Part shown: positions 1,772 through 19,854 of the stretch, piece by piece | How positions within the stretch are numbered: position 1 is the stretch's first letter | Layout: each line of letters opens with the position of its first letter | Source: Cellvibrio japonicus Ueda107 | Lineage (GTDB): Bacteria; Pseudomonadota; Gammaproteobacteria; Pseudomonadales; Cellvibrionaceae | Direction of reading: 5' to 3' | DNA: 40,000 nucleotides | Assembly: GCF_000019225.1 (NCBI RefSeq) | Contig: NC_010995.1 | Coordinates: forward strand, 3,773,957-3,813,956 | The notes under the pieces: generated by a model | Databases searched by the model: none | Told to the model about the DNA's origin: nothing | What the model saw: the letters and a program-made list of their open reading frames with translations, nothing else | Program-made: the position numbers and the translations under genes

Positions 1772-4045
1772 TTAAGGCTGTGGCTGGCATTGATTGCCCC
1801 TATTGGCCTCGATCACGGCCCGGTCGGCCGCGTCGGTCAGGCCGTCGTAGTTGAAGTCATACCAGCTCGAATAGCCGCCACCCTGGTCAGGGTCGGCCCA
1901 GTAGGCCCATTGCTCCAGGTCAGTGCCGTCCACCATCCCATCGCGATTGCCATCACCCGGGCAGGCAGGCTGGGATGCCAGGATGGCATCCAGCCGGGCG
2001 CTGAGCGCCTGGTAGTGCTGCCGCTGGTGCAGGGGCAGGTCATCGGCAGCCTTATCGGCCAGCAGGTTGTTGTCGGCGGTATCCAGTGTCGGCAGCGGCA
2101 CCGCCTGGTCGATGGCATAAAATTCAACGGACTCGACTTCCACCCCGTTATCGGTCGCTGTGTCGTAGTCCTGGGTTCGATTGCGCACCAGCTTGTAATG
2201 GTCGTTGCGGATGGCCAGGTAGCTGGTCCAGCCCATCTCGCGGCGGTTCTGGGCGTAGGCATCCGGGTCGTGCCGGTAGATGGCCTGGTTCACCTGCCAG
2301 CAGTGCGCCAGGTCGCCGCTGCCATAGGCGGCGACCTGCGGGTCGTCGGCACCCATGCCCCACCAGGTGCCGCCGTTGTCCTCGCACACCGCCTTGTTCA
2401 CCGGGGTGTGCGAGCAGAGGTTGTTGATCACACAGGGGCCGTTGCGCCCCTGGTCGAGCTGGATATTCAGGCCGCCCTGGGCAAAGTTGTACGCGCGCAG
2501 GCTGGATTGAACCGGGTTTTGCAGATAGGGCAGCATGGCCATCCCGTCGATACCCTGGGGCGCCAGGGTGTCCACCGCCAGCCCGGCGATTTCGCCGAAC
2601 AGGTGAAAGACATCGGCGGTGTTAACCATATGCTCCACATCGCGGTCCGGCGCCCCCACCAGGGGGCCGGCGACGATCAGCGGCACCCAGATGCCGGTCT
2701 GGTAGGCCGTGCCCTTGGCGCGGGTGAGGTCGAAGGGGACTTTGGCCGTGGCGCCGAAGGAGCCGTTATCACCAACGATCACCACCATGGTGTTGCTGTC
2801 CGGCTGGTAGGCCAGCCTGCCCTCGCCATCGCGCACCGCGATACCGGTTTCCACCAACAGGCGGCCCAGTTCCTCGTCCATGGCCTCCACCAGCGCGTCG
2901 GTCAGCAGGCGCTGGTTGACCAGGGTGTCAGTGGCCATGCGGCAATCGGCTTTCATGCCTTGCGTGTTGTTCGAGGGCAGCAGTGCGCTTGGCGGTGTTT
3001 GCAGCGGCGTATGGGCGGCGCTGAAACTGACAGTGGCCATCCAGGGTTTGCTGCCGTCGCGGCTGTTGATCCAGTCGCGGGCGGCAGCGGCCTCGATGGT
3101 GGAGCGATAGCCGCGCCCGCGCGGATCGGCGAGCGGCACTTCCTCAATACCATCCGGGCGATTGATCACCAGCGGCGAGACGTAATGGGCGTTTTCCCGC
3201 GCGAAGTCGAGGGTATCGGGCGGGGTCGGCGCACAGGCCGCATTGGGTACCAGGATGCCGCCGCGAATCAGGCATTGCAGCCCGGCGGCATCGCCTTCGG
3301 GGTCACTGGTCAGCTCTGCGCAGGTGAAATTGTCCGGGCTGTGCGGGATATAGCAGGCGCCCTGGTCGGCCCCGGCTTCCCCGTCATCGGCCAGCGCCGG
3401 CACATAACCGCAGGAATAGGTGTCCGCCGGGGCGATACCCCCGGCGGTGGTGTCGATGGAAGCCGGCAGGCCGCCGGTCCACCCATAGAAATAATCCCAG
3501 CCCAGTTCCCGCGGCGTGCCATTGCCGGCGGCGTTGTAGTCCGGCCCCGCCAGGTGGAATTTGCCGAACATGGCGCTTTCGTAACCGGCTCCCTTCAGCA
3601 GCTTGGGCGCCGTGAGGTCGTAGCGGGAAAGCTGGGAGTTGGCCAGGTCATTGGGGCCGATGGCCTGGTAGATGTTGGTGCGCAGGGGATAGCGCCCGGC
3701 CAGCAGCGCGGCGCGCCCCGGCGAGCATTCGGGCATGGACCAGGTGTTGCGGAAACGGATGCCGGCACCGGCGATGGCGTCGATGGTCGGCATGCTCGGC
3801 GGATGCAGGCCGCCATAACCCATGGAAGGCATTTGATCCACGCCCACGTCATCCATGATGACAAACAGGATATTGGGCGGCGACGCCGGTTCGCTCGACC
3901 CGGTGCTGCTCGATTCAACATGGCTCGAAGCGCTGGATGCGGAAGCGGCACTTGCGCTGGAACCGGCGCCGGAACTCGAACCGGAGTGGCAGCCGCTGAT
4001 GGCAAGCAGGCACAGGCTGGCCAGCAGTAGTGTGCGAATGTCCAT
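1772..4045 (-). CDS. Cys-type sulfatase lipoprotein, paralog 2, with C-terminal dockerin/EF-hand-like repeats
   Basis: The track ORF 1772..4051 begins at TTG. The ATG at 4045 gives MDIRTLLLASLCLLAISGC (lipobox). It has a Ser-rich linker, NILFVIMDDVGVDQ and the CSPGR motif. The C-terminus has two DxNxDGxxDxxD repeats (DGNRDGMVDGTD, DFNYDGLTDAAD). Confidence 0.85.
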   Translation of the reverse strand: MDIRTLLLASLCLLAISGCHSGSSSGAGSSASAASASSASSHVESSSTGSSEPASPPNILFVIMDDVGVDQMPSMGYGGLHPPSMPTIDAIAGAGIRFRNTWSMPECSPGRAALLAGRYPLRTNIYQAIGPNDLANSQLSRYDLTAPKLLKGAGYESAMFGKFHLAGPDYNAAGNGTPRELGWDYFYGWTGGLPASIDTTAGGIAPADTYSCGYVPALADDGEAGADQGACYIPHSPDNFTCAELTSDPEGDAAGLQCLIRGGILVPNAACAPTPPDTLDFARENAHYVSPLVINRPDGIEEVPLADPRGRGYRSTIEAAAARDWINSRDGSKPWMATVSFSAAHTPLQTPPSALLPSNNTQGMKADCRMATDTLVNQRLLTDALVEAMDEELGRLLVETGIAVRDGEGRLAYQPDSNTMVVIVGDNGSFGATAKVPFDLTRAKGTAYQTGIWVPLIVAGPLVGAPDRDVEHMVNTADVFHLFGEIAGLAVDTLAPQGIDGMAMLPYLQNPVQSSLRAYNFAQGGLNIQLDQGRNGPCVINNLCSHTPVNKAVCEDNGGTWWGMGADDPQVAAYGSGDLAHCWQVNQAIYRHDPDAYAQNRREMGWTSYLAIRNDHYKLVRNRTQDYDTATDNGVEVESVEFYAIDQAVPLPTLDTADNNLLADKAADDLPLHQRQHYQALSARLDAILASQPACPGDGNRDGMVDGTDLEQWAYWADPDQGGGYSSWYDFNYDGLTDAADRAVIEANRGNQCQPQP

Positions 4046-12517: not shown

Positions 12518-12534
12518 GACTCTAAATTTCTAAC

Positions 12535-14306
12535 GAGCTTGTAGAAAAACGATTTTTAGAGATCGTTATCCAGCAGCTAAAATTGAAATTATTACCTGGC
12601 CAGTATTTAACCACAACCCCTTAACATAATCACCCATTATCCGCAGTCGAATGAATTCGATGTGAATAACTCTGTGGATTAACCCACATTCGCGTAATTC
12701 ATTAACTTTTCGATGTTATGTACCAAACAATATAACTGCCATTGACCTTGCACCTTGCGTTTTCCTCGTAACGAAAATCGATTCAGCTGTTTATTCGCGC
12801 AAATATTGGCGAAAACCGGCTCCACAGTCGACATGCGATGACCGTAAATAGCTTTTCCTTGTTTGCTATCAATCCGACGCTTCATCCAGTCTGTCGCATT
12901 GGCATGAATCGAAAACGTTTTAGATACCTGACGCCCATGACCTTCGCGGCTATCAGCTGACGAAGGATTACGCATGCATTCATACTTGAGGGGACAGTGA
13001 CGACAATCCGTTAGCTTACCCTCAAAATACAATTGCATTCGACCTGGCCCTTGACGGTATTCATGTTTCAGCCACATGTCCTTCCCTGCCGGACACTTAC
13101 AGCTTTTTCGTTGCAGGTCAAAAATAAATTCCGAGGCCGGAATAACGGCTTTTACTCCCTTCACATTATCTTGATGGCGCTTACCATGTTTCTCTTTTTG
13201 ATGGTCAAACATCTTGTCTCTTGAGCGAAATTGATTATCCGGAATATATGCATTGATACCTTCTTCTTTAAGGTACTCATCGTTAGCACCATTGGAAAAC
13301 CCCGTATCTGCCGTAATGATCACATTGGATTTTAGGATGTCGTCGCAGATCCCCATCTTTTGGTAACGCGTCTGTATGCTATGCAGAACAGGCTTTAATG
13401 TGTGATGTTCCTGACTTTCACCAAAAGCCTCGGCATCAACAATAACCTGATGCTTCTTATCAACGGCGGCTACGCCGTTGTAACCCTGGATGGTACCTTT
13501 ACTGGTCGTCATCTTGGCCGACTCATTGTCGGTAATATTGCTCTTCACTTCCTTTGGTTTTTTACCTTGCCCCATCCGTGGGGTTGCTGTCTTTAGGAAC
13601 TTATCTATCCGCTCGAATTCTTTTTTCAGGGTGTCGGTTGCTTTAGCGAGTTGCTGCTTGCGGTCTCGCTCGTTGGGTTTTCGGCCATCCAGTTTTTTGT
13701 GTTCTTTCAAGCAGGTGCGGATTTTGCGGCTGATCTTTTCTCGCTTTTGAGCCAGCTCATCCAAGGTTCCGGAGTGCTCCTTGGCGGCATTAGAAGATAT
13801 CTTGCAACCATCAATGGCAAAGAGTTCATGTCCCAGTAAGCCATGTTGGTCGCACACCAGTATTACTTGTGTAAAAACCGATTCAATCGCATCCGGATAG
13901 CTACTGACAAAGCTGGCAATGCTGGTGAAGTGGGGGACGGAATCGCAGGAGAGGGCTTTGAAAATAATATTGTGCTCGCATTGCCACTGAATGTCGCGGC
14001 TGGAGGTAATGCCCTTGGAGTACGCAAACAAGATAATTTTTAGCAAGATGGCCGGATCGTAAGCTGTACGCCCACCGCCATCGTTGCTGTACTTTTCGTA
14101 GAAAGCCGACAGGTCGATATGGTTGTCGATTAATTTATGAAGGGTAAATTCGAAAGTGCCTGGCTGTAATTGCTCTTCAAAATTAATAACCACCATTGCG
14201 CTTTGGCTATAGCTGTATTTTTTGAAGTTTGGCATGGCGCTACTCCTTGAAACGATACCGAATTTTATCAAAAAATCACTATTTTTAGGAGTTTTTCTAC
14301 AACTTC
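12535..14306 (-). mobile_element. IS element, IS1182-family-like, inserted in an attC core
   Basis: Terminal inverted repeats GAGCTTGTAGAAAAAC (12535..12550) and GTTTTTCTACAACTTC (14291..14306), 14/16 matching. Flanking AAC duplication at 12532..12534 and 14307..14309. One transposase ORF. Confidence 0.75.
12679..14235 (-). CDS. DDE transposase (IS1182/IS5-superfamily type)
   Basis: Start MPNFKKYSYSQS preceded by AAGGAG. N-terminal RTAYDPAILLKIILFAYSKGITSSRDI, a central coiled-coil, Cys clusters, and C-terminal STVEPVFANICANKQLNRFSLRGKRKVQGQWQLYCLVHNIEKL. Confidence 0.85.
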   Translation of the reverse strand: MPNFKKYSYSQSAMVVINFEEQLQPGTFEFTLHKLIDNHIDLSAFYEKYSNDGGGRTAYDPAILLKIILFAYSKGITSSRDIQWQCEHNIIFKALSCDSVPHFTSIASFVSSYPDAIESVFTQVILVCDQHGLLGHELFAIDGCKISSNAAKEHSGTLDELAQKREKISRKIRTCLKEHKKLDGRKPNERDRKQQLAKATDTLKKEFERIDKFLKTATPRMGQGKKPKEVKSNITDNESAKMTTSKGTIQGYNGVAAVDKKHQVIVDAEAFGESQEHHTLKPVLHSIQTRYQKMGICDDILKSNVIITADTGFSNGANDEYLKEEGINAYIPDNQFRSRDKMFDHQKEKHGKRHQDNVKGVKAVIPASEFIFDLQRKSCKCPAGKDMWLKHEYRQGPGRMQLYFEGKLTDCRHCPLKYECMRNPSSADSREGHGRQVSKTFSIHANATDWMKRRIDSKQGKAIYGHRMSTVEPVFANICANKQLNRFSLRGKRKVQGQWQLYCLVHNIEKLMNYANVG

Positions 14307-14416
14307 AACGCCGCGATAAGCGGTGGTTTTTAAGTTGCACTTTTGCCATAAAATGGAGCGAAGCGGAATGGCAAAAGAGCAACTTAAAAACCATCCGTTT
14401 GATTGCTTTGTTAGGC
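14307..14416 (-). other. attC site of the 14411..14830 cassette (R' core split by the IS)
   Basis: On the minus strand: GCCTAAC (the stop TAA lies inside) ... GGTTTTTAAGTTGC.CTTTTGCCAT / ATGGCAAAAG.GCAACTTAAAAACC long stem ... GCGGC-GTT|IS. The rest of R' (GTTAGAA) is at 12528..12534. Confidence 0.65.
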
Positions 14417-14830
14417 ATGGTGTTCGTGGCCAAACCCAATTCTATGCCAAGCTTCTTTAAAATTTGATGTGTCGTATGATGTTGGTTGAAGCCAATATGA
14501 AATAACACCATTTTTTTCGCCACGATGAGCTAAATTTTTAATTTCTTCAGGGAGCATTACAAATACATTTGGCTCTTTACCAACATTATTAATTATTAGC
14601 CAAAAATCACCCATAACTTTTTCAAGAGAGCTACCCAATGGTACGGGATTTCTTTTTGTAAGTGATTTTACTTGAACCCCAATAAACTCAGTTCCTGATT
14701 TGTTATAAGCAATAATGTCTATGCCTCTAGCGTTTCTCGCAGTTGGCATAACGTTCCAACCCATACAGGAAAGCTTATAGCACGCGTAATACATTCCGAT
14801 ATTTCCAGTCACCTGAGTTTCCAGCTTCAT
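14411..14830 (-). CDS. PD-(D/E)xK nuclease-fold protein (Hjc/DUF4365-like), single-gene cassette
   Basis: GNIGMYYACYKLSCMGWNV ... RGIDIIAY ... FIGVQVKS matches the E...D...(Q/E)xK layout of archaeal-Hjc-type nucleases. The ATG lies 8 nt after R' GTTAGGC. Confidence 0.6.
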   Translation of the reverse strand: MKLETQVTGNIGMYYACYKLSCMGWNVMPTARNARGIDIIAYNKSGTEFIGVQVKSLTKRNPVPLGSSLEKVMGDFWLIINNVGKEPNVFVMLPEEIKNLAHRGEKNGVISYWLQPTSYDTSNFKEAWHRIGFGHEHHA

Positions 14831-14837
14831 TACTATT

Positions 14838-14922
14838 GCCTAACGCCGTGCTCAACGGCAGTTTGTAAGTTGTGGTTTTGTGGGTTACTTTTGCGCAGCA
14901 AAACCACAAAGCCGCGAGTCGA
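14838..14922 (-). other. 3' portion of the intron-interrupted attC (cassette 4)
   Basis: Ends in GCACGGC-GTTAGGC (R' at 14838..14844). Contains CTTACAAACTG (14859..14869), complementary to 16781..16791. An inner hairpin TTGTGGTTTTG...CAAAACCACAA is present. The upper limit depends on the unresolved intron 3' end. Confidence 0.4.
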
Positions 14923-14958
14923 GTAGACCAACGGAACCTCCCCCATCAGCCCCTCACA

Positions 14959-14992
14959 GAACCGTACGTGACACTCTCGCGTCATACGGCTC
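14959..14992 (-). ncRNA. Group II intron domain V
   Basis: GAGCCGTATGACGCGAGAGTGTCACGTACGGTTC is a 34-nt hairpin with the catalytic AGC triad and the bulge position typical of DV. Confidence 0.85.
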
Positions 14993-15018
14993 TTGTTATT
15001 CCAACTATCAACAATGTA

Positions 15019-16263
15019 TCACCAGTGCGCAAACAGGGTCGGCCGCCACTGTTTGATTTGCGTTAACCATGAGTAGGCGTTCAGTCGTCGGCTGCGCTTC
15101 TGCGGATATTTACCTTTTACCCATTTTGTTAATCGGCATTCAATCGCTTCTCGAATGCCTTGCAGTGCCGATGGATAAAAAGCGCCGTAGTAGGTAAACC
15201 ACCCTCTGATTTGTGGATTGAGCTTTTTGCTGAGTGTGACTATCGATAGCCTACTCAATCGTCTCACATTCCACTCTCTCATCGTCTTCACAATCGCTTT
15301 CTTGGCTTTGTTGCTGATGGCCGGTACAAAACCCGGAACCAATTTGCCATCTTTGCGTTTCACGGTTCTTCGCCGGAAGGTGAAGCCCAGAAAGTCAAAC
15401 GATTGCGCTTTGGTCCTTTCTATTTTGCGTCGGCCACAGTATACAATTTTGGTTTTCTCAGGGTGCAGTGTTAAATCAAAGCGCTGCATCCTTCGTGAAA
15501 TAGCACTGAGCAGTTGCTCCGCTTCATGCTCTGTTCGACAATGACAAACAATATCGTCGGCATAGCGCTCGAACGGATTTTGTGGAAAATATTTTTGCAT
15601 CCAGCTATCAAACACTTTGTGCAAATAAAGATTCGCCAACAGCGGGCTAATAACTCCCCCCTGTGGCGTTCCTTTTGCAGTCTTGTGCAGCTCACCGCCC
15701 GGCATTTGCACACCGGCCGTGATCCAGCGCTTGATGTACAGCTTGCACCATGGGTCATCCGTTGCTTGTGCAACAAATTTTTGTAATTGATCGTGATTCA
15801 AATTGTCGAAGAAACCTTTGATATCCAGATCAATGACCCATGAATATTTCCAGCAGTTTATTTTCGCCGCTTGCACCGCGTGATGGGCACTCCGCCTGGG
15901 GCGATAGCCAAACGAGGATGCGTGGAATTTGCTATCCCATTCCGGCTCCAGTGTCATCTTGACCACCATTTGCGCCACTCGATCTGCCACCGTGGGTATA
16001 CCCAGTGGACGCAGCTTGCCATCCGCTTTGGCCATTTCAACTCGCTTTACCGGTGGTGCCATGTAGCTGCCTGAACTCATCCGGTTCCAGAGTTTATACA
16101 ACTCATTTTCCAAATTGTGTTCAAACATGTCGATACAGACATTGTCAGCACCCGCAACACCCGCGTTTGCTTTTACTTTCAACCAAGCCGCATACACCAA
16201 CTGCTTCGATATACTGTAACTGTGCACTGATTGTTGAATCCTGCCTTGCGGTTGTTGGTTCAA
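15019..16263 (-). CDS. Group II intron reverse transcriptase/maturase (no endonuclease domain)
   Basis: RT blocks: RPLGIPTVADRVAQ, DLDIKGFFDNLNH, GTPQGGVISPLLANLYL, ERYADDIVCHC (YADD). Maturase X region FLGFTF ... IRGWFTYYG. The protein ends LFAHW. The start codon is uncertain (TTG at 16263). Confidence 0.9.
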   Translation of the reverse strand: MNQQPQGRIQQSVHSYSISKQLVYAAWLKVKANAGVAGADNVCIDMFEHNLENELYKLWNRMSSGSYMAPPVKRVEMAKADGKLRPLGIPTVADRVAQMVVKMTLEPEWDSKFHASSFGYRPRRSAHHAVQAAKINCWKYSWVIDLDIKGFFDNLNHDQLQKFVAQATDDPWCKLYIKRWITAGVQMPGGELHKTAKGTPQGGVISPLLANLYLHKVFDSWMQKYFPQNPFERYADDIVCHCRTEHEAEQLLSAISRRMQRFDLTLHPEKTKIVYCGRRKIERTKAQSFDFLGFTFRRRTVKRKDGKLVPGFVPAISNKAKKAIVKTMREWNVRRLSRLSIVTLSKKLNPQIRGWFTYYGAFYPSALQGIREAIECRLTKWVKGKYPQKRSRRLNAYSWLTQIKQWRPTLFAHW

Positions 16264-16780
16264 TCACTGCTGAATAACATCGCCCCTTCGCTCCATTGTC
16301 ATTACAACAACTTCAACACTACTACGAACGATTCCGCCACTGTGCGCCGCATCGATACTCTCACCTTACGGGGTCACCGCTTTCGGCTTCTCTCTTAACA
16401 TCAGCACGACAGCTTCCCGAGTTCCTCACAAAAGCCTGATAAACGGTCACGCCTTCTTTACGCCGGTTGCCATCGGATCAGTAAGCAGTTTTCTTTCCGG
16501 TTTCTCTCAGCAATTGTAAGGGTCGCTGATTTTGACAACAGTTAGGGACATCACGACGCCTCATCAAAGGTTCACTTGCGTTCGTCTCCGTTTATCGTAC
16601 CTGCCGAATTTTATTCCGACTTTTCTTCAACGCTCACGACAATGACTCTTTATCAATGCCGCTTGAAGTGGTTTGCACTCACTTACTGCAAAGCGAATGC
16701 GGTGGGCCTGCCACCATCTCTTGCGAAGTTACGTAAACAGTTTGGACGCTACGCGACCCCACCATTTACTCTCGGCACAC

Positions 16781-16832
16781 CTTACAAACTGTCCAGCACG
16801 CAAAGCGTGCGAACTAGAACGCCTTGTTAATG
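16781..16832 (-). other. 5' portion of the intron-interrupted attC (cassette 4)
   Basis: R'' CATTAAC (16826..16832) lies 6 nt after the cassette stop. Then the hairpin GCACGC-TTT-GCGTGC (16796..16810), then CAGTTTGTAAG abutting the intron. Confidence 0.45.
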
Positions 16833-16838
16833 ATTTGG

Positions 16839-17261
16839 CTATAACCACATTTGCACAATAATTGTAATGGCAACCCCACAAGAACCCATACCAAACAGAA
16901 CTAGCTGCCACCAAAACAGACACCACGATAATTTTCCTAGAGCCTTGGTTTCTTGCCGGTCACTAGAACTGACTGGTTCATCTTTATAGCGTGAACGTGC
17001 AATCTGCGTGGTAGCACGAAAATCTCGCAGGCGGTTGATGGCGCACCAAACAGATAGACCAATGGAAATTGCGAGCAAGACCATTGAGCATGTTGCGATA
17101 ATAAGCAAGCAACTGCTAACGGGCTGAACAACAACAAAACCAGAGACTAAAAATGCCAGAAGACCTGTAGATAGCCCAAGAACAAGATTGGATACAGACG
17201 AAAAATAATCTCTCGTAATACCTTGCCACCGAACGAAGCTCTCTTTATCTTCTGCTGCCAC
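16839..17261 (-). CDS. Small integral membrane protein, unknown function (cassette)
   Basis: GTG start preceded by AGGAG. Three or four hydrophobic helices. I recognise no motif. Confidence 0.55.
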   Translation of the reverse strand: MAAEDKESFVRWQGITRDYFSSVSNLVLGLSTGLLAFLVSGFVVVQPVSSCLLIIATCSMVLLAISIGLSVWCAINRLRDFRATTQIARSRYKDEPVSSSDRQETKALGKLSWCLFWWQLVLFGMGSCGVAITIIVQMWL

Positions 17262-18836: not shown

Positions 18837-18852
18837 CTGTTTGCATATACAG
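18837..18852 (+). promoter_or_regulatory. LexA (SOS) box
   Basis: CTGTTTGCATATACAG is a perfect CTGT-N8-ACAG. It starts 3 nt downstream of the candidate -10 and lies 31 nt upstream of the intI ATG. Confidence 0.7.
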
Positions 18853-18882
18853 CTCACTTATTTAAAGGAGCAAGGAGGCATA

Positions 18883-19854
18883 ATGTACAAATCCCCTTTT
18901 TTATCAAGCATTTACGATGAAATGATGCGCCGTCGCTACGCCAAGCGAACCATCGAAACCTATTTGCATTGGATCAAGCGTTACATTGTGTTCCATAACA
19001 AGCAGCATCCGTCCTTGATGGGCGACAGAGAAGTTGAAGCCTATCTTGATCATCTGGTTTTACAGCACAATGTCGCGGGACCAACACAAGCACTGGTATT
19101 AAATGCACTCAGCTTTCTTTATAGGGAGATATTGCACAAACCCTTATCCCTGGAACTAAGGTTTGTCAAAAGTCAAAAAACCCGCAAGCTCCCCGTAGTA
19201 CTCACCCGTGACGAAATAACTGCGTTGATGGCTAACATAAGCAGCAACCATTACTTACCGGCAGCATTGATGTATGGCAGCGGCCTTAGACTCATGGAGG
19301 CCGTACGATTGCGAACAAAAGACATAGATTTTGATTACTGCTGTGTGCGGGTCTGGAATGGGAAAGGAGGAAAGCATCGTACAGTCACCCTGGCCCCAGA
19401 GTTAAAAAAGCCTTTAACAGTACAAATACAACGGGTGGAATATCTCCTATCCAAGGATTTGCTAAATCCAACCTATGACGGTGTTTGGCTACCACATGCA
19501 CTCCGGCATAAATATGTTTCTGCCAATACATCACTGGGTTGGCAATATTTATTTCCATCGGATCGTTTGAGTATCGATCCTGAAAATCAACGGGTCAGAC
19601 GACACCATATTGATGAAAGCGGATTACAAAAAGCCATCAGAAATGCCTCGCAAAAAGCCAATATCCGCAAACATGTTAGCGCACATACACTGCGTCATTC
19701 TTTTGCCACTCACTTACTAGCATCCGGGGCTGATATTCGTACCGTGCAGGATCAGCTTGGACATACAGACGTTAAGACGACTCAAATTTATACCCACGTT
19801 TTGCAAATGGGCGGCAATGCCGTAAAAAGCCCCTTCTCAACGCTGGGTATTTAG
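18883..19854 (+). CDS. intI: Integron integrase IntI
   Basis: Start MYKSPFL preceded by AAGGAGCAAGGAGG. Tyrosine recombinase boxes RLMEAVRLR, HTLRHSFATHLL and GHTDVKTTQIYTHV. It also has the IntI-type extra segment ALRHKYVSANTSLGWQYLFPSDRLSIDPENQRVRRHHIDESGLQKA. Confidence 0.93.
   Translation: MYKSPFLSSIYDEMMRRRYAKRTIETYLHWIKRYIVFHNKQHPSLMGDREVEAYLDHLVLQHNVAGPTQALVLNALSFLYREILHKPLSLELRFVKSQKTRKLPVVLTRDEITALMANISSNHYLPAALMYGSGLRLMEAVRLRTKDIDFDYCCVRVWNGKGGKHRTVTLAPELKKPLTVQIQRVEYLLSKDLLNPTYDGVWLPHALRHKYVSANTSLGWQYLFPSDRLSIDPENQRVRRHHIDESGLQKAIRNASQKANIRKHVSAHTLRHSFATHLLASGADIRTVQDQLGHTDVKTTQIYTHVLQMGGNAVKSPFSTLGI

Follow-up and report, generated by a model that had tools for sequence, protein, structure and literature searches.

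Integron attC sites are generally held to act through the bottom strand alone, in its folded form, and the introns described as targeting them are antisense passengers that block cassette expression. How, then, does a group II intron come to lie inside an attC site on the top, cassette-sense strand, reading in the same direction as the cassettes? The case in question lies in a 40,000-nucleotide (nt) stretch of Cellvibrio japonicus Ueda107 (NC_010995.1, positions 3,773,957 to 3,813,956, forward strand; hereafter the window, whose own numbering is used below) and was pointed out by a first-pass annotation made from the sequence alone. Our analysis favours, with a probability of roughly 0.75 for identity and target site, an autonomous class C intron that encodes a reverse transcriptase (RT) without an endonuclease (En) domain and that retrohomed into the top strand of the fourth attC site of a sedentary chromosomal integron. 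The first-pass annotation covered this insertion alone; it is not a one-off, and belongs to a genus-restricted lineage that reuses the same position in nine genomes.

The intron, its boundaries and its protein

Rfam matches, homology limits among copies and an exact empty site define the intron and its parts:

14918..16780, minus strand: group II intron, assigned to class C, 1863 nt, 5′ GTGTG ... 3′ CTCGAC (Rfam; homology limits among copies; exact empty site)
16599..16715, minus strand: domain I core (Rfam group-II-D1D4-2, RF01999; 107.4 bits, gathering score 36, full-length)
16514..16522, minus strand: loop of exon-binding site 1 (EBS1), CCCTTACAA, 9 nt, closed by a 7-bp stem (compensatory stem changes)
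15019..16263, minus strand: RT/maturase, 414 aa, YADD at residue 234 (RVT_1 1e-43, GIIM 1e-12; TIGR04416 423 bits, cut-off 300)
14959..14992, minus strand: domain V, GAGCCGTATG...CACGTACGGTTC, AGC triad present (Rfam RF00029)
14918..14958, minus strand: domain VI with the 3′ end of the intron (Rfam alignment with its structure line)

Both ends are sharply defined. Homology among the genus copies, which are 83–93% identical, starts precisely at GTGTG (16780..16776), the 5′ end that the first-pass annotation had considered plausible, and stops precisely at ...CTACTCGAC (14918). The domain V that it had recognised is matched, together with domain VI, by the full length of RF00029 (14994..14918, minus strand; 65 bits, gathering score 40), and the same alignment places the bulged branch A of domain VI at 14924, 7 nt short of the 3′ splice site.

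The pairing that had been proposed to define the 5′ junction also holds. Specifically, the last 7 nt of the 5′ exon, TTGTAAG (16787..16781; intron-binding site 1, IBS1), are complementary to EBS1, CTTACAA, at 16520..16514 within CCTTACAA (16521..16514). The stem that closes the EBS1 loop covaries, reading CAGCGA/TTGCTG here versus CAGTGG/CTACTG in genome G001, and the loop is invariant; judged by this comparison, a covarying stem-loop presenting CTTACAA is what an EBS1 loop of domain I should look like. The terminal TAAG of IBS1 is kept in all copies except two decayed ones (L004 and L102), which end in TAAT. Copies at TTTTAAG sites retain only the four pairs (TAAG) next to the splice site, in agreement with the 4–5-nt IBS1 of class C introns (PMC10190682). 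Covariation of the EBS1–IBS1 pairing, looked for among copies at TTGTAAG, TTTTAAG and TTGTAAT, was not found, EBS1 being invariant. IBS3 is T in all attC-inserted copies, here the T at 14917.

A profile search of the RT reveals RVT_1 and GIIM only and no endonuclease domain, confirming the En-less RT/maturase of the first-pass annotation. The four top matches of the RT in the PDB are all class IIC enzymes (6ar1, 162 bits; 7uim, 154; 5hhl, 141; 5hhj, 139), representing GsI-IIC (162 bits) and then the E. rectale and R. intestinalis maturases, whereas the non-IIC structures LtrA (IIA, 125 bits) and T.el4h (IIB, 124 bits) score lower. Assignment to class C, already suspected, is thus supported by the ranking of structural matches, by the small En-less intron-encoded protein (IEP) and by the short IBS1. 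In the genome and plasmid collections, identity of the RT to sequences from outside the genus does not exceed 56%. In a maximum-likelihood tree of 62 rows, it forms a long-branched pair with its homologue in G035 (100/100); the nearest sampled relative is a Salmonella plasmid intron in an IS66-type gene, in a clade shared with Bacteroidota introns. The open reading frame (ORF) is intact, and comparison with the G035 copy gives a dN/dS ratio of 0.10 (dN 0.05, dS 0.50), indicating that the RT has been under purifying selection through its divergence from that copy. The intron is the only copy, and its RT the only group II RT, in the 4.58-Mb genome.

The interrupted attC site

The window contains a complete integron, consisting of the integrase gene intI and small ORFs on the minus strand that run away from it. 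intI diverges from the cassette array, and every cassette ORF, like the intron, is on the minus strand (ORF list and profile searches). After each cassette ORF comes an imperfect palindrome whose minus-strand sequence is xTAAC-AA...GC-GTTxxxx (attC1 to attC5, read directly), so the minus strand is the top, cassette-sense strand. These palindromes have the properties of attC sites: they are bounded by R″ and R′, follow cassettes in an array beside intI, recur genus-wide at cassette-like spacing, and fold with z scores from −4 to −9 against shuffles. The relevant features are as follows (here and below, a slash within a sequence marks the insertion point or junction):

18841..19854, plus strand: intI, integron integrase (TIGR02249 456 bits, cut-off 265; Pfam Phage_integrase and SAM_4)
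16839..17261, minus strand: ORF of cassette 4, whose attC is interrupted by the intron (ORF list; 140 aa)
16781..16832, minus strand: 5′ exon of attC4, comprising R″ core, L″ region, side hairpin and ascending main-stem arm (sequence; genus attC consensus)
16826..16832, minus strand: R″ core CATTAAC (xTAAC-AA pattern as in attC1–3 and attC5)
16796..16810, minus strand: side hairpin GCACGC-TTT-GCGTGC, ending 15 nt before the insertion point
16781..16787, minus strand: IBS1 TTGTAAG (complementary to EBS1)
14838..14917, minus strand: 3′ exon of attC4, comprising IBS3 T (14917), apical stem-loop, descending arm CTTACAAACTG (14869..14859), L′ and R′ GTTAGGC (14844..14838) (sequence; joined-exon fold; genus consensus)
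14859..14886, plus strand: empty bottom-strand IBS1/IBS3 motif in attC4, CAGTTTGTAAG/TTGTGG... (pattern match, G000:C1:3788815-3788842(+))
14305..14418, minus strand: attC5, an empty example of the second attC type, GGATGGTTTTTAAG/TTGC (matches the flanks of occupied L003/L012 in G001 and L103 in G075)

The intron interrupts the fourth attC site on the top strand. In particular, direct reading places it between R″ CATTAAC (16832..16826) and R′ GTTAGGC (14844..14838), with the insertion point 45 nt 3′ of the R″ core and inside the main stem. The 11-nt segments CAGTTTGTAAG (16791..16781) and CTTACAAACTG (14869..14859) are an exact inverted pair, and the fold of the joined exons confirms the earlier suggestion that they are the two halves of the attC stem. 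The divergent intI, the minus-strand ORFs and the 45-nt distance from R″ likewise bear out the description of a top-strand intron that reads in the cassette direction and lies deeper in the stem than introns of the S.ma.I2 type. The polarity of attC4, R″-AA...GC-R′, is the same as that of the neighbouring attC sites and of the cassette ORFs.

Empty sites give the joined exons directly. The 28-nt junction CAGTTTGTAAG/TCGCGGCTTTGTGGTTT occurs uninterrupted and exact in the same genome (G000:C1:961107-961134). With up to three mismatches allowed, the pattern is found unoccupied in 55 of the 64 genus genomes, with up to 71 matches per genome at cassette-like spacing; the reversed pattern, used as a control, has essentially no matches. 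The intron therefore interrupts the standard attC of the genus cleanly, without target duplication. The first-pass annotation had asked for an intron-free copy of this attC in relatives, and had noted that structure-based boundaries might fall outside the attC arms; the empty copy exists in relatives and in the same genome, and the homology limits and the empty site put the intron inside the attC.

On either strand, the reconstructed empty attC4 folds into a long, imperfect hairpin (z = −4.2 for the top and −5.6 for the bottom strand, against shuffles). Thirty-five full empty attC sites share one architecture, xTAAC-AAGKCG...-[hairpin]-TGGA-CAGTTTGTAAG/TCGCRGYTTTGTGGTTTTGC...CCACAAAACCACAA-CTTACAAACTG-CCGYTGARC.CGGC-GTTAxxx, in which the bracketed hairpin corresponds to the side hairpin of attC4. 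A perfect Watson–Crick hairpin of at least 5 bp ends 15–17 nt before the insertion point in 25 of 39 empty sites, with 12 distinct stem sequences, compared with 3.7% for shuffled upstream sequence (counts from a flexible finder; a fixed-register count is too low). By this alignment of empty sites, the side hairpin is a conserved, covarying branch on the 5′ arm of the genus attC family. The first-pass annotation had read the hairpin as the stem-loop used by class C introns. The perfect hairpin is real, and a role as class C recognition stem-loop is plausible; it is not private to this site and is not a terminator, it is shorter and more distant than the class C consensus stem, and some occupied sites lack it (see below).

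A side hairpin lies 5′ of the IBS1 motif on 64% of top strands versus 23% of bottom strands. The motif itself is also common on the bottom strand, where CAGNNNKTAAKT is present in 31 of 38 attC sites.

In attC5 the equivalent insertion point lies between 14383 and 14382. An IS1182/IS5-like element (DDE_Tnp_1_6 and DUF772; 12528..14309) is inserted at the R′ end of attC5 and parts it from the next cassette; its transposase ORF runs from 14271 to 12679 on the minus strand, and its inverted ends read TGTAGAAAAA. The 140-aa product of cassette 4 has no family match in Pfam or NCBIfam. Outside the integron, attC repeats of the same family form integrase-less, intron-free clusters at about 318.7 kb, 955–961 kb and 1654 kb of G000:C1; at 318 kb and 955–961 kb their top strand is on the leading-strand template.

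Recurrence, strand choice and alternative explanations

The same insertion recurs across the genus. There are seven distinct 5′ junctions, in G000, G067, G030, G001, G075 and, twice, G035, and five further 3′ junctions, in G035, G063, G083, G080 and G067, making nine genomes in total. At every junction the intron follows the R″-AA motif or precedes GC-GTTAxxx as a top-strand insertion does, and no bottom-strand insertion of this lineage is present among the approximately 12 junctions in the nine genomes; some junctions may share ancestry through cassette shuffling, so 12/12 overstates independence and is not a probability. Empty attC sites sampled or pattern-matched in the arrays of G035, G067 and G063 also have their top strand on the strand of the intron. 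Two attC types are occupied, the common ...CAGTTTGTAAG/TCGC... and a second, ...GGATGGTTTTTAAG/TTGC..., the latter occupied in G001 and G075 and empty in the window as attC5. The two site types, together with the different upstream cassettes, argue for repeated insertion.

A more distant relative, at 82% identity (G068), lies outside attC, in the loop of an unrelated hairpin beside a terminator. The flanks and neighbouring ORFs of L029, from a Desulfobulbaceae metagenome-assembled genome (MAG), and of L025/L027, from a metagenome chromosome, look like top-strand attC sites; both fall in the other major clade of the 62-row tree, and no integrase was seen in these loci. If their flanks are read correctly, this suggests that the top-strand habit arose more than once, in other phyla too. 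Of the 80 closest relatives of the IEP in public genomes, not one has the TTGT/T junction of the lineage of IIC-attC introns, the class C introns described from attC sites. Seven annotated regions examined after tblastn of the plasmid collection contain class C introns, none of which lies in an integron. The 3′ ends of the 87 relative loci were located with iterated nhmmer profiles, a strict domain V regular expression alone having caught 22 of the 87.

What could direct the intron to the top strand? Cumulative GC skew locates the origin close to coordinate 0 and the terminus at about 2.1–2.2 Mb. In the window (3.77–3.81 Mb), the minus strand has leading-strand composition, the cassettes and the intron are co-directional with replication, and the top strand of attC is therefore the lagging-strand template and the bottom strand the leading-strand template. 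The composition of 80 kb around five intron sites in four other genomes gives the same result: the sense strand of the intron is the G-rich strand, and hence the lagging-strand template, at all six testable sites in five genomes. This polarity matches the orientation reported for sedentary chromosomal integrons, 25 of 30 of which keep the attC bottom strand on the leading-strand template (Loot et al., PMC5371416), and the lagging strand is thought to be the one invaded by class C ribonucleoproteins (RNPs), En-less particles that use lagging strands at replication forks on targets made of a 5′ stem-loop, a spacer, a 4–5-nt IBS1 and a 1-nt IBS3 (PMC10190682).

In the mechanism that we propose, the target is the canonical attC repeat of the genus, whose top strand comprises the side hairpin (5–6-bp stem, 3-nt loop), a spacer, IBS1 (T)TGTAAG, the insertion point and IBS3 T, with IBS1 pairing with CTTACAA in the EBS1 loop of domain I. 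By analogy with established IIC biology, the RNP would reverse-splice into single-stranded DNA at the fork, and the intron would be copied from lagging-strand primers. The top strand would be favoured as the lagging-strand template in this integron orientation, and also as the sole strand with the side hairpin 5′ of the IBS1 motif. We infer that the passing fork would expose the 5′ arm (R″, side hairpin, IBS1) before the 3′ arm, leaving IBS1 briefly unpaired beside a folded hairpin.

The two strand cues, namely replication strand and a side hairpin that precedes IBS1 on the top strand alone, coincide, and several observations weigh against the proposal. Besides the overstated independence of the junctions, no case seen allows the effect of hairpin position to be told apart from that of replication strand, so that neither is shown to be the cause. 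The side hairpin has a stem of 5–6 bp, shorter than the ~12-bp consensus stem of IIC targets, and the 8–11 nt that part it from IBS1 exceed the short spacer seen in the E. rectale structure (PMC10190682). Three occupied sites (L011/L019, L103 and L003/L012) have no adjacent hairpin, indicating that the hairpin cannot be essential. In addition, the genome holds only one copy with several attC sites of the right type empty, and many relatives are fragments; together these indicate that mobility is low. The rationale from replication and attC architecture is coherent and inferential, and we regard the mechanism of strand choice as evenly poised between right and wrong.

Much of the recurrence could in principle be inheritance: one ancient insertion may have spread passively by IntI-mediated cassette movement, recombination between attC repeats or horizontal transfer, carrying its orientation along. 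The 3′ exons at L001, L002, L105 and L108 are indeed homologous over their full length, each genome has one or a few copies, and most attC sites of the right type are empty. However, 3′ exon homology is expected anyway, attC being a genus-wide repeat, and passive spread does not sit well with the occupation of two clearly different attC types, TTGTAAG/TCGC... and TTTTAAG/TTGC..., the second of which is identical around the junction, base for base, to the empty site in the window. The 5′ exons also differ in hairpin sequence, R″ and upstream cassette, and the EBS1–IBS1 complementarity and the selected RT are features kept by an element that is still retrohoming, making passive spread an unlikely account. 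The intron could also be an inactive relic that no longer splices or moves and simply disrupts attC. Its single copy, the many truncated or ORF-less relatives and the 5′ GTGTG, a less common form of the GUGYG consensus, are compatible with decay, but the Rfam matches to domain I and to domains V and VI are full-length, the 414-aa ORF with YADD is intact at a dN/dS of 0.10 over a dS of 0.50, and the EBS1 loop and the branch A are conserved; we consider decay distinctly unlikely.

The remaining alternatives draw on introns already described from integrons. A member of the S.ma.I2-type IIC-attC group could have become co-oriented by accident, through an inverted cassette or a later inversion; the intron is, after all, a class C intron within attC, and the ACAA in its EBS1, CTTACAA, is complementary to TTGT, which is reported as the IBS1 of IIC-attC introns (PMC7923331). 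Yet attC4 has the polarity of its neighbours and of the cassette ORFs, with nothing inverted, and we rejected the inverted-cassette idea on this ground. The insertion lies 45 nt inside the site instead of at the TTGT/T of R″, nine genomes share this position, and the 0/80 count for TTGT/T among the nearest IEP relatives and the RT identity of at most 56% outside the genus point the same way, leaving very little room for this origin. A cassette-genesis intermediate of the Leon & Roy type, to the extent that the model is summarised in PMC7923331, would have the intron placed after the terminator hairpin of a gene and then recombined with an attC copy to give a chimeric site. A hairpin shortly upstream of the intron, an attC-like half downstream and the imperfect pairing of L″ and L′ in attC4 would suit it, but the whole 5′ exon, hairpin included, belongs to the canonical attC, and hundreds of empty sites have it joined without a break to the same 3′ half. 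The empty sites contradict the model, to which we give next to no credence.

The preferred reading, repeated retrohoming of an autonomous class C intron into the top strand of attC, leaves several observations on related copies to record. ORF-less derivatives of about 670 nt (L003/L012 at G001:C37:12010-12678, and L114 at G067:C1:2378099-2378255) retain positions 1–572 and about 1762/1778–1863, with near-identical deletion end-points in G001 and G067, and may represent a non-autonomous mini-intron that needs the RT in trans; the G001 copy occupies a site of the attC5 type. Fragmentary copies, often at contig ends or with varied internal breaks, occur in G035 (C1:546 kb; C1:2.345 Mb, a contig end; C9:1.578 Mb; the end of C5) and in G031 (three contig ends), which suggests that intron repeats act as assembly or recombination breakpoints in these two genomes.

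Among the nearest class C relatives, many from other phyla sit within the YADD codons of another RT gene, ...TACGCNGAYGAY/GTGCGCCACG... (L022, L024, L026, L033, L035, L036, L038, L040, L043–L045, L049–L053, L064, L071 and L081), and look like a lineage homing into RT genes. Another set (L037, L039, L086–L088 and L136), which includes the Salmonella plasmid intron, the closest sampled relative, occupies one conserved position in transposase genes of the IS66 type, ...GCCGACCAC/intron/TGCCGCTSTACCG.... A clade with the same GTGTGCCGAG 5′ end (L062, L082, L095, L070 and L068, from Bacteroidota, Cyanobacteriota and Marinimicrobia MAGs) follows a long hairpin and lies approximately 8–11 nt before a CGTTAxxx core, and these insertions may be attC-associated, near R′. 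In L072, a Maribacter MAG, two class C copies lie head to tail near position 3450, with ...CTACTCGAC followed directly by GTGTGC.

Consequences and comparison with known introns

A co-oriented intron should be transcribed within the array transcript, which would supply the RT, and its splicing would leave the cassette mRNA uninterrupted. Splicing from the array transcript is plausible on the present reading: no terminator-like site is predicted on the minus strand between attI and the intron, which is weak evidence, and a generic promoter scan gave results at chance level. At the DNA level, 1.86 kb in the attC stem should stop the site from folding for IntI, and cassettes 4 and 5 would be locked together unless excised jointly.

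If this reading is correct, introns of this lineage would be transcribed from Pc, spliced from the cassette transcript and nearly harmless to expression. An intron in such an operon-like array should splice out and leave downstream cassettes expressed, with its DNA site disabled and part of the array stabilised; cassette excision would be frozen at the occupied site, and the intron could ride along with moving neighbour cassettes. The insertions would also be natural evidence that, in chromosomal integrons, the attC top strand can be reached in vivo as structured single-stranded DNA on the lagging-strand template. Bottom-strand IIC-attC introns and the top-strand lineage would form a pair of related systems with which DNA structure, short pairing and replication polarity can be separated experimentally as targeting cues, and surveys limited to antisense attC-associated introns will miss some.

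Compared with what has been described, the lineage differs from IIC-attC introns in strand and position, judging from the sequences, and same-orientation cases have so far been isolated exceptions. The first-pass annotation had described IIC-attC introns as bottom-strand insertions at R″, antisense to the cassettes, and this agrees with PMC3001079 and PMC7923331, which give TTGT/T in R″ on the bottom strand as their insertion site and an orientation against that of cassette transcription. The known members (S.ma.I2, E.c.I7, Kl.pn.I1, N.e.I1, G.s.I1 and Sh.ba.I2) resemble the intron studied here in being class C attC specialists with an En-less RT that recognise a folded DNA motif with very short IBS1/IBS3, in both mobile and chromosomal arrays (PMC3001079, PMC7923331). 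They differ in that they are antisense, block Pc transcription and carry outward promoters, a trait of no relevance to a co-oriented intron, whereas the intron here occupies the top strand in the orientation of the cassettes and follows TTGTAAG in the ascending arm, 45 nt into the site.

The first-pass annotation had also allowed that top-strand insertions might already be common in the literature. They are not common, and isolated precedents do exist. A top-strand case in a clinical mobile integron of E. cloacae (2012), as cited in PMC7923331, is single, whereas here a whole lineage occupies one defined position of a genus-specific chromosomal attC, a comparison made by description only. In Shewanella algae KC-Na-R1, a class C intron with the same orientation in a cassette array was attributed probably to 'a different invasion process' (PMC9229058), in one sentence without target site, strand analysis or lineage. 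UHB.I2, from a hypersaline metagenome (PMC7923331), is likewise co-oriented with the cassettes and associated with an attC top strand, but it belongs to group IIB (IIB/CL1), lies just after attC and not within it, and has no conserved exon motif. A full-text literature search returned no described lineage with a defined top-strand target, and the claim that this is the first class C intron lineage to be defined as a specialist of the attC top strand, the non-recombinogenic one, in chromosomal integrons could, in our estimate, go either way.

The classical class C introns B.h.I1, O.i.I1 and E. rectale E.r.I1 share with this lineage the En-less RT, a target of 5′ stem-loop, spacer and IBS1/IBS3, and dependence on the lagging strand (PMC10190682), and they are the best structural matches to the RT. 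They differ in target geometry: they insert after a complete hairpin, a terminator stem-loop, with a stem of ~12 bp and a short spacer, whereas the intron of C. japonicus has a candidate stem of 5–6 bp and a spacer of 8–11 nt, and is inserted inside the ascending arm of a much larger hairpin.

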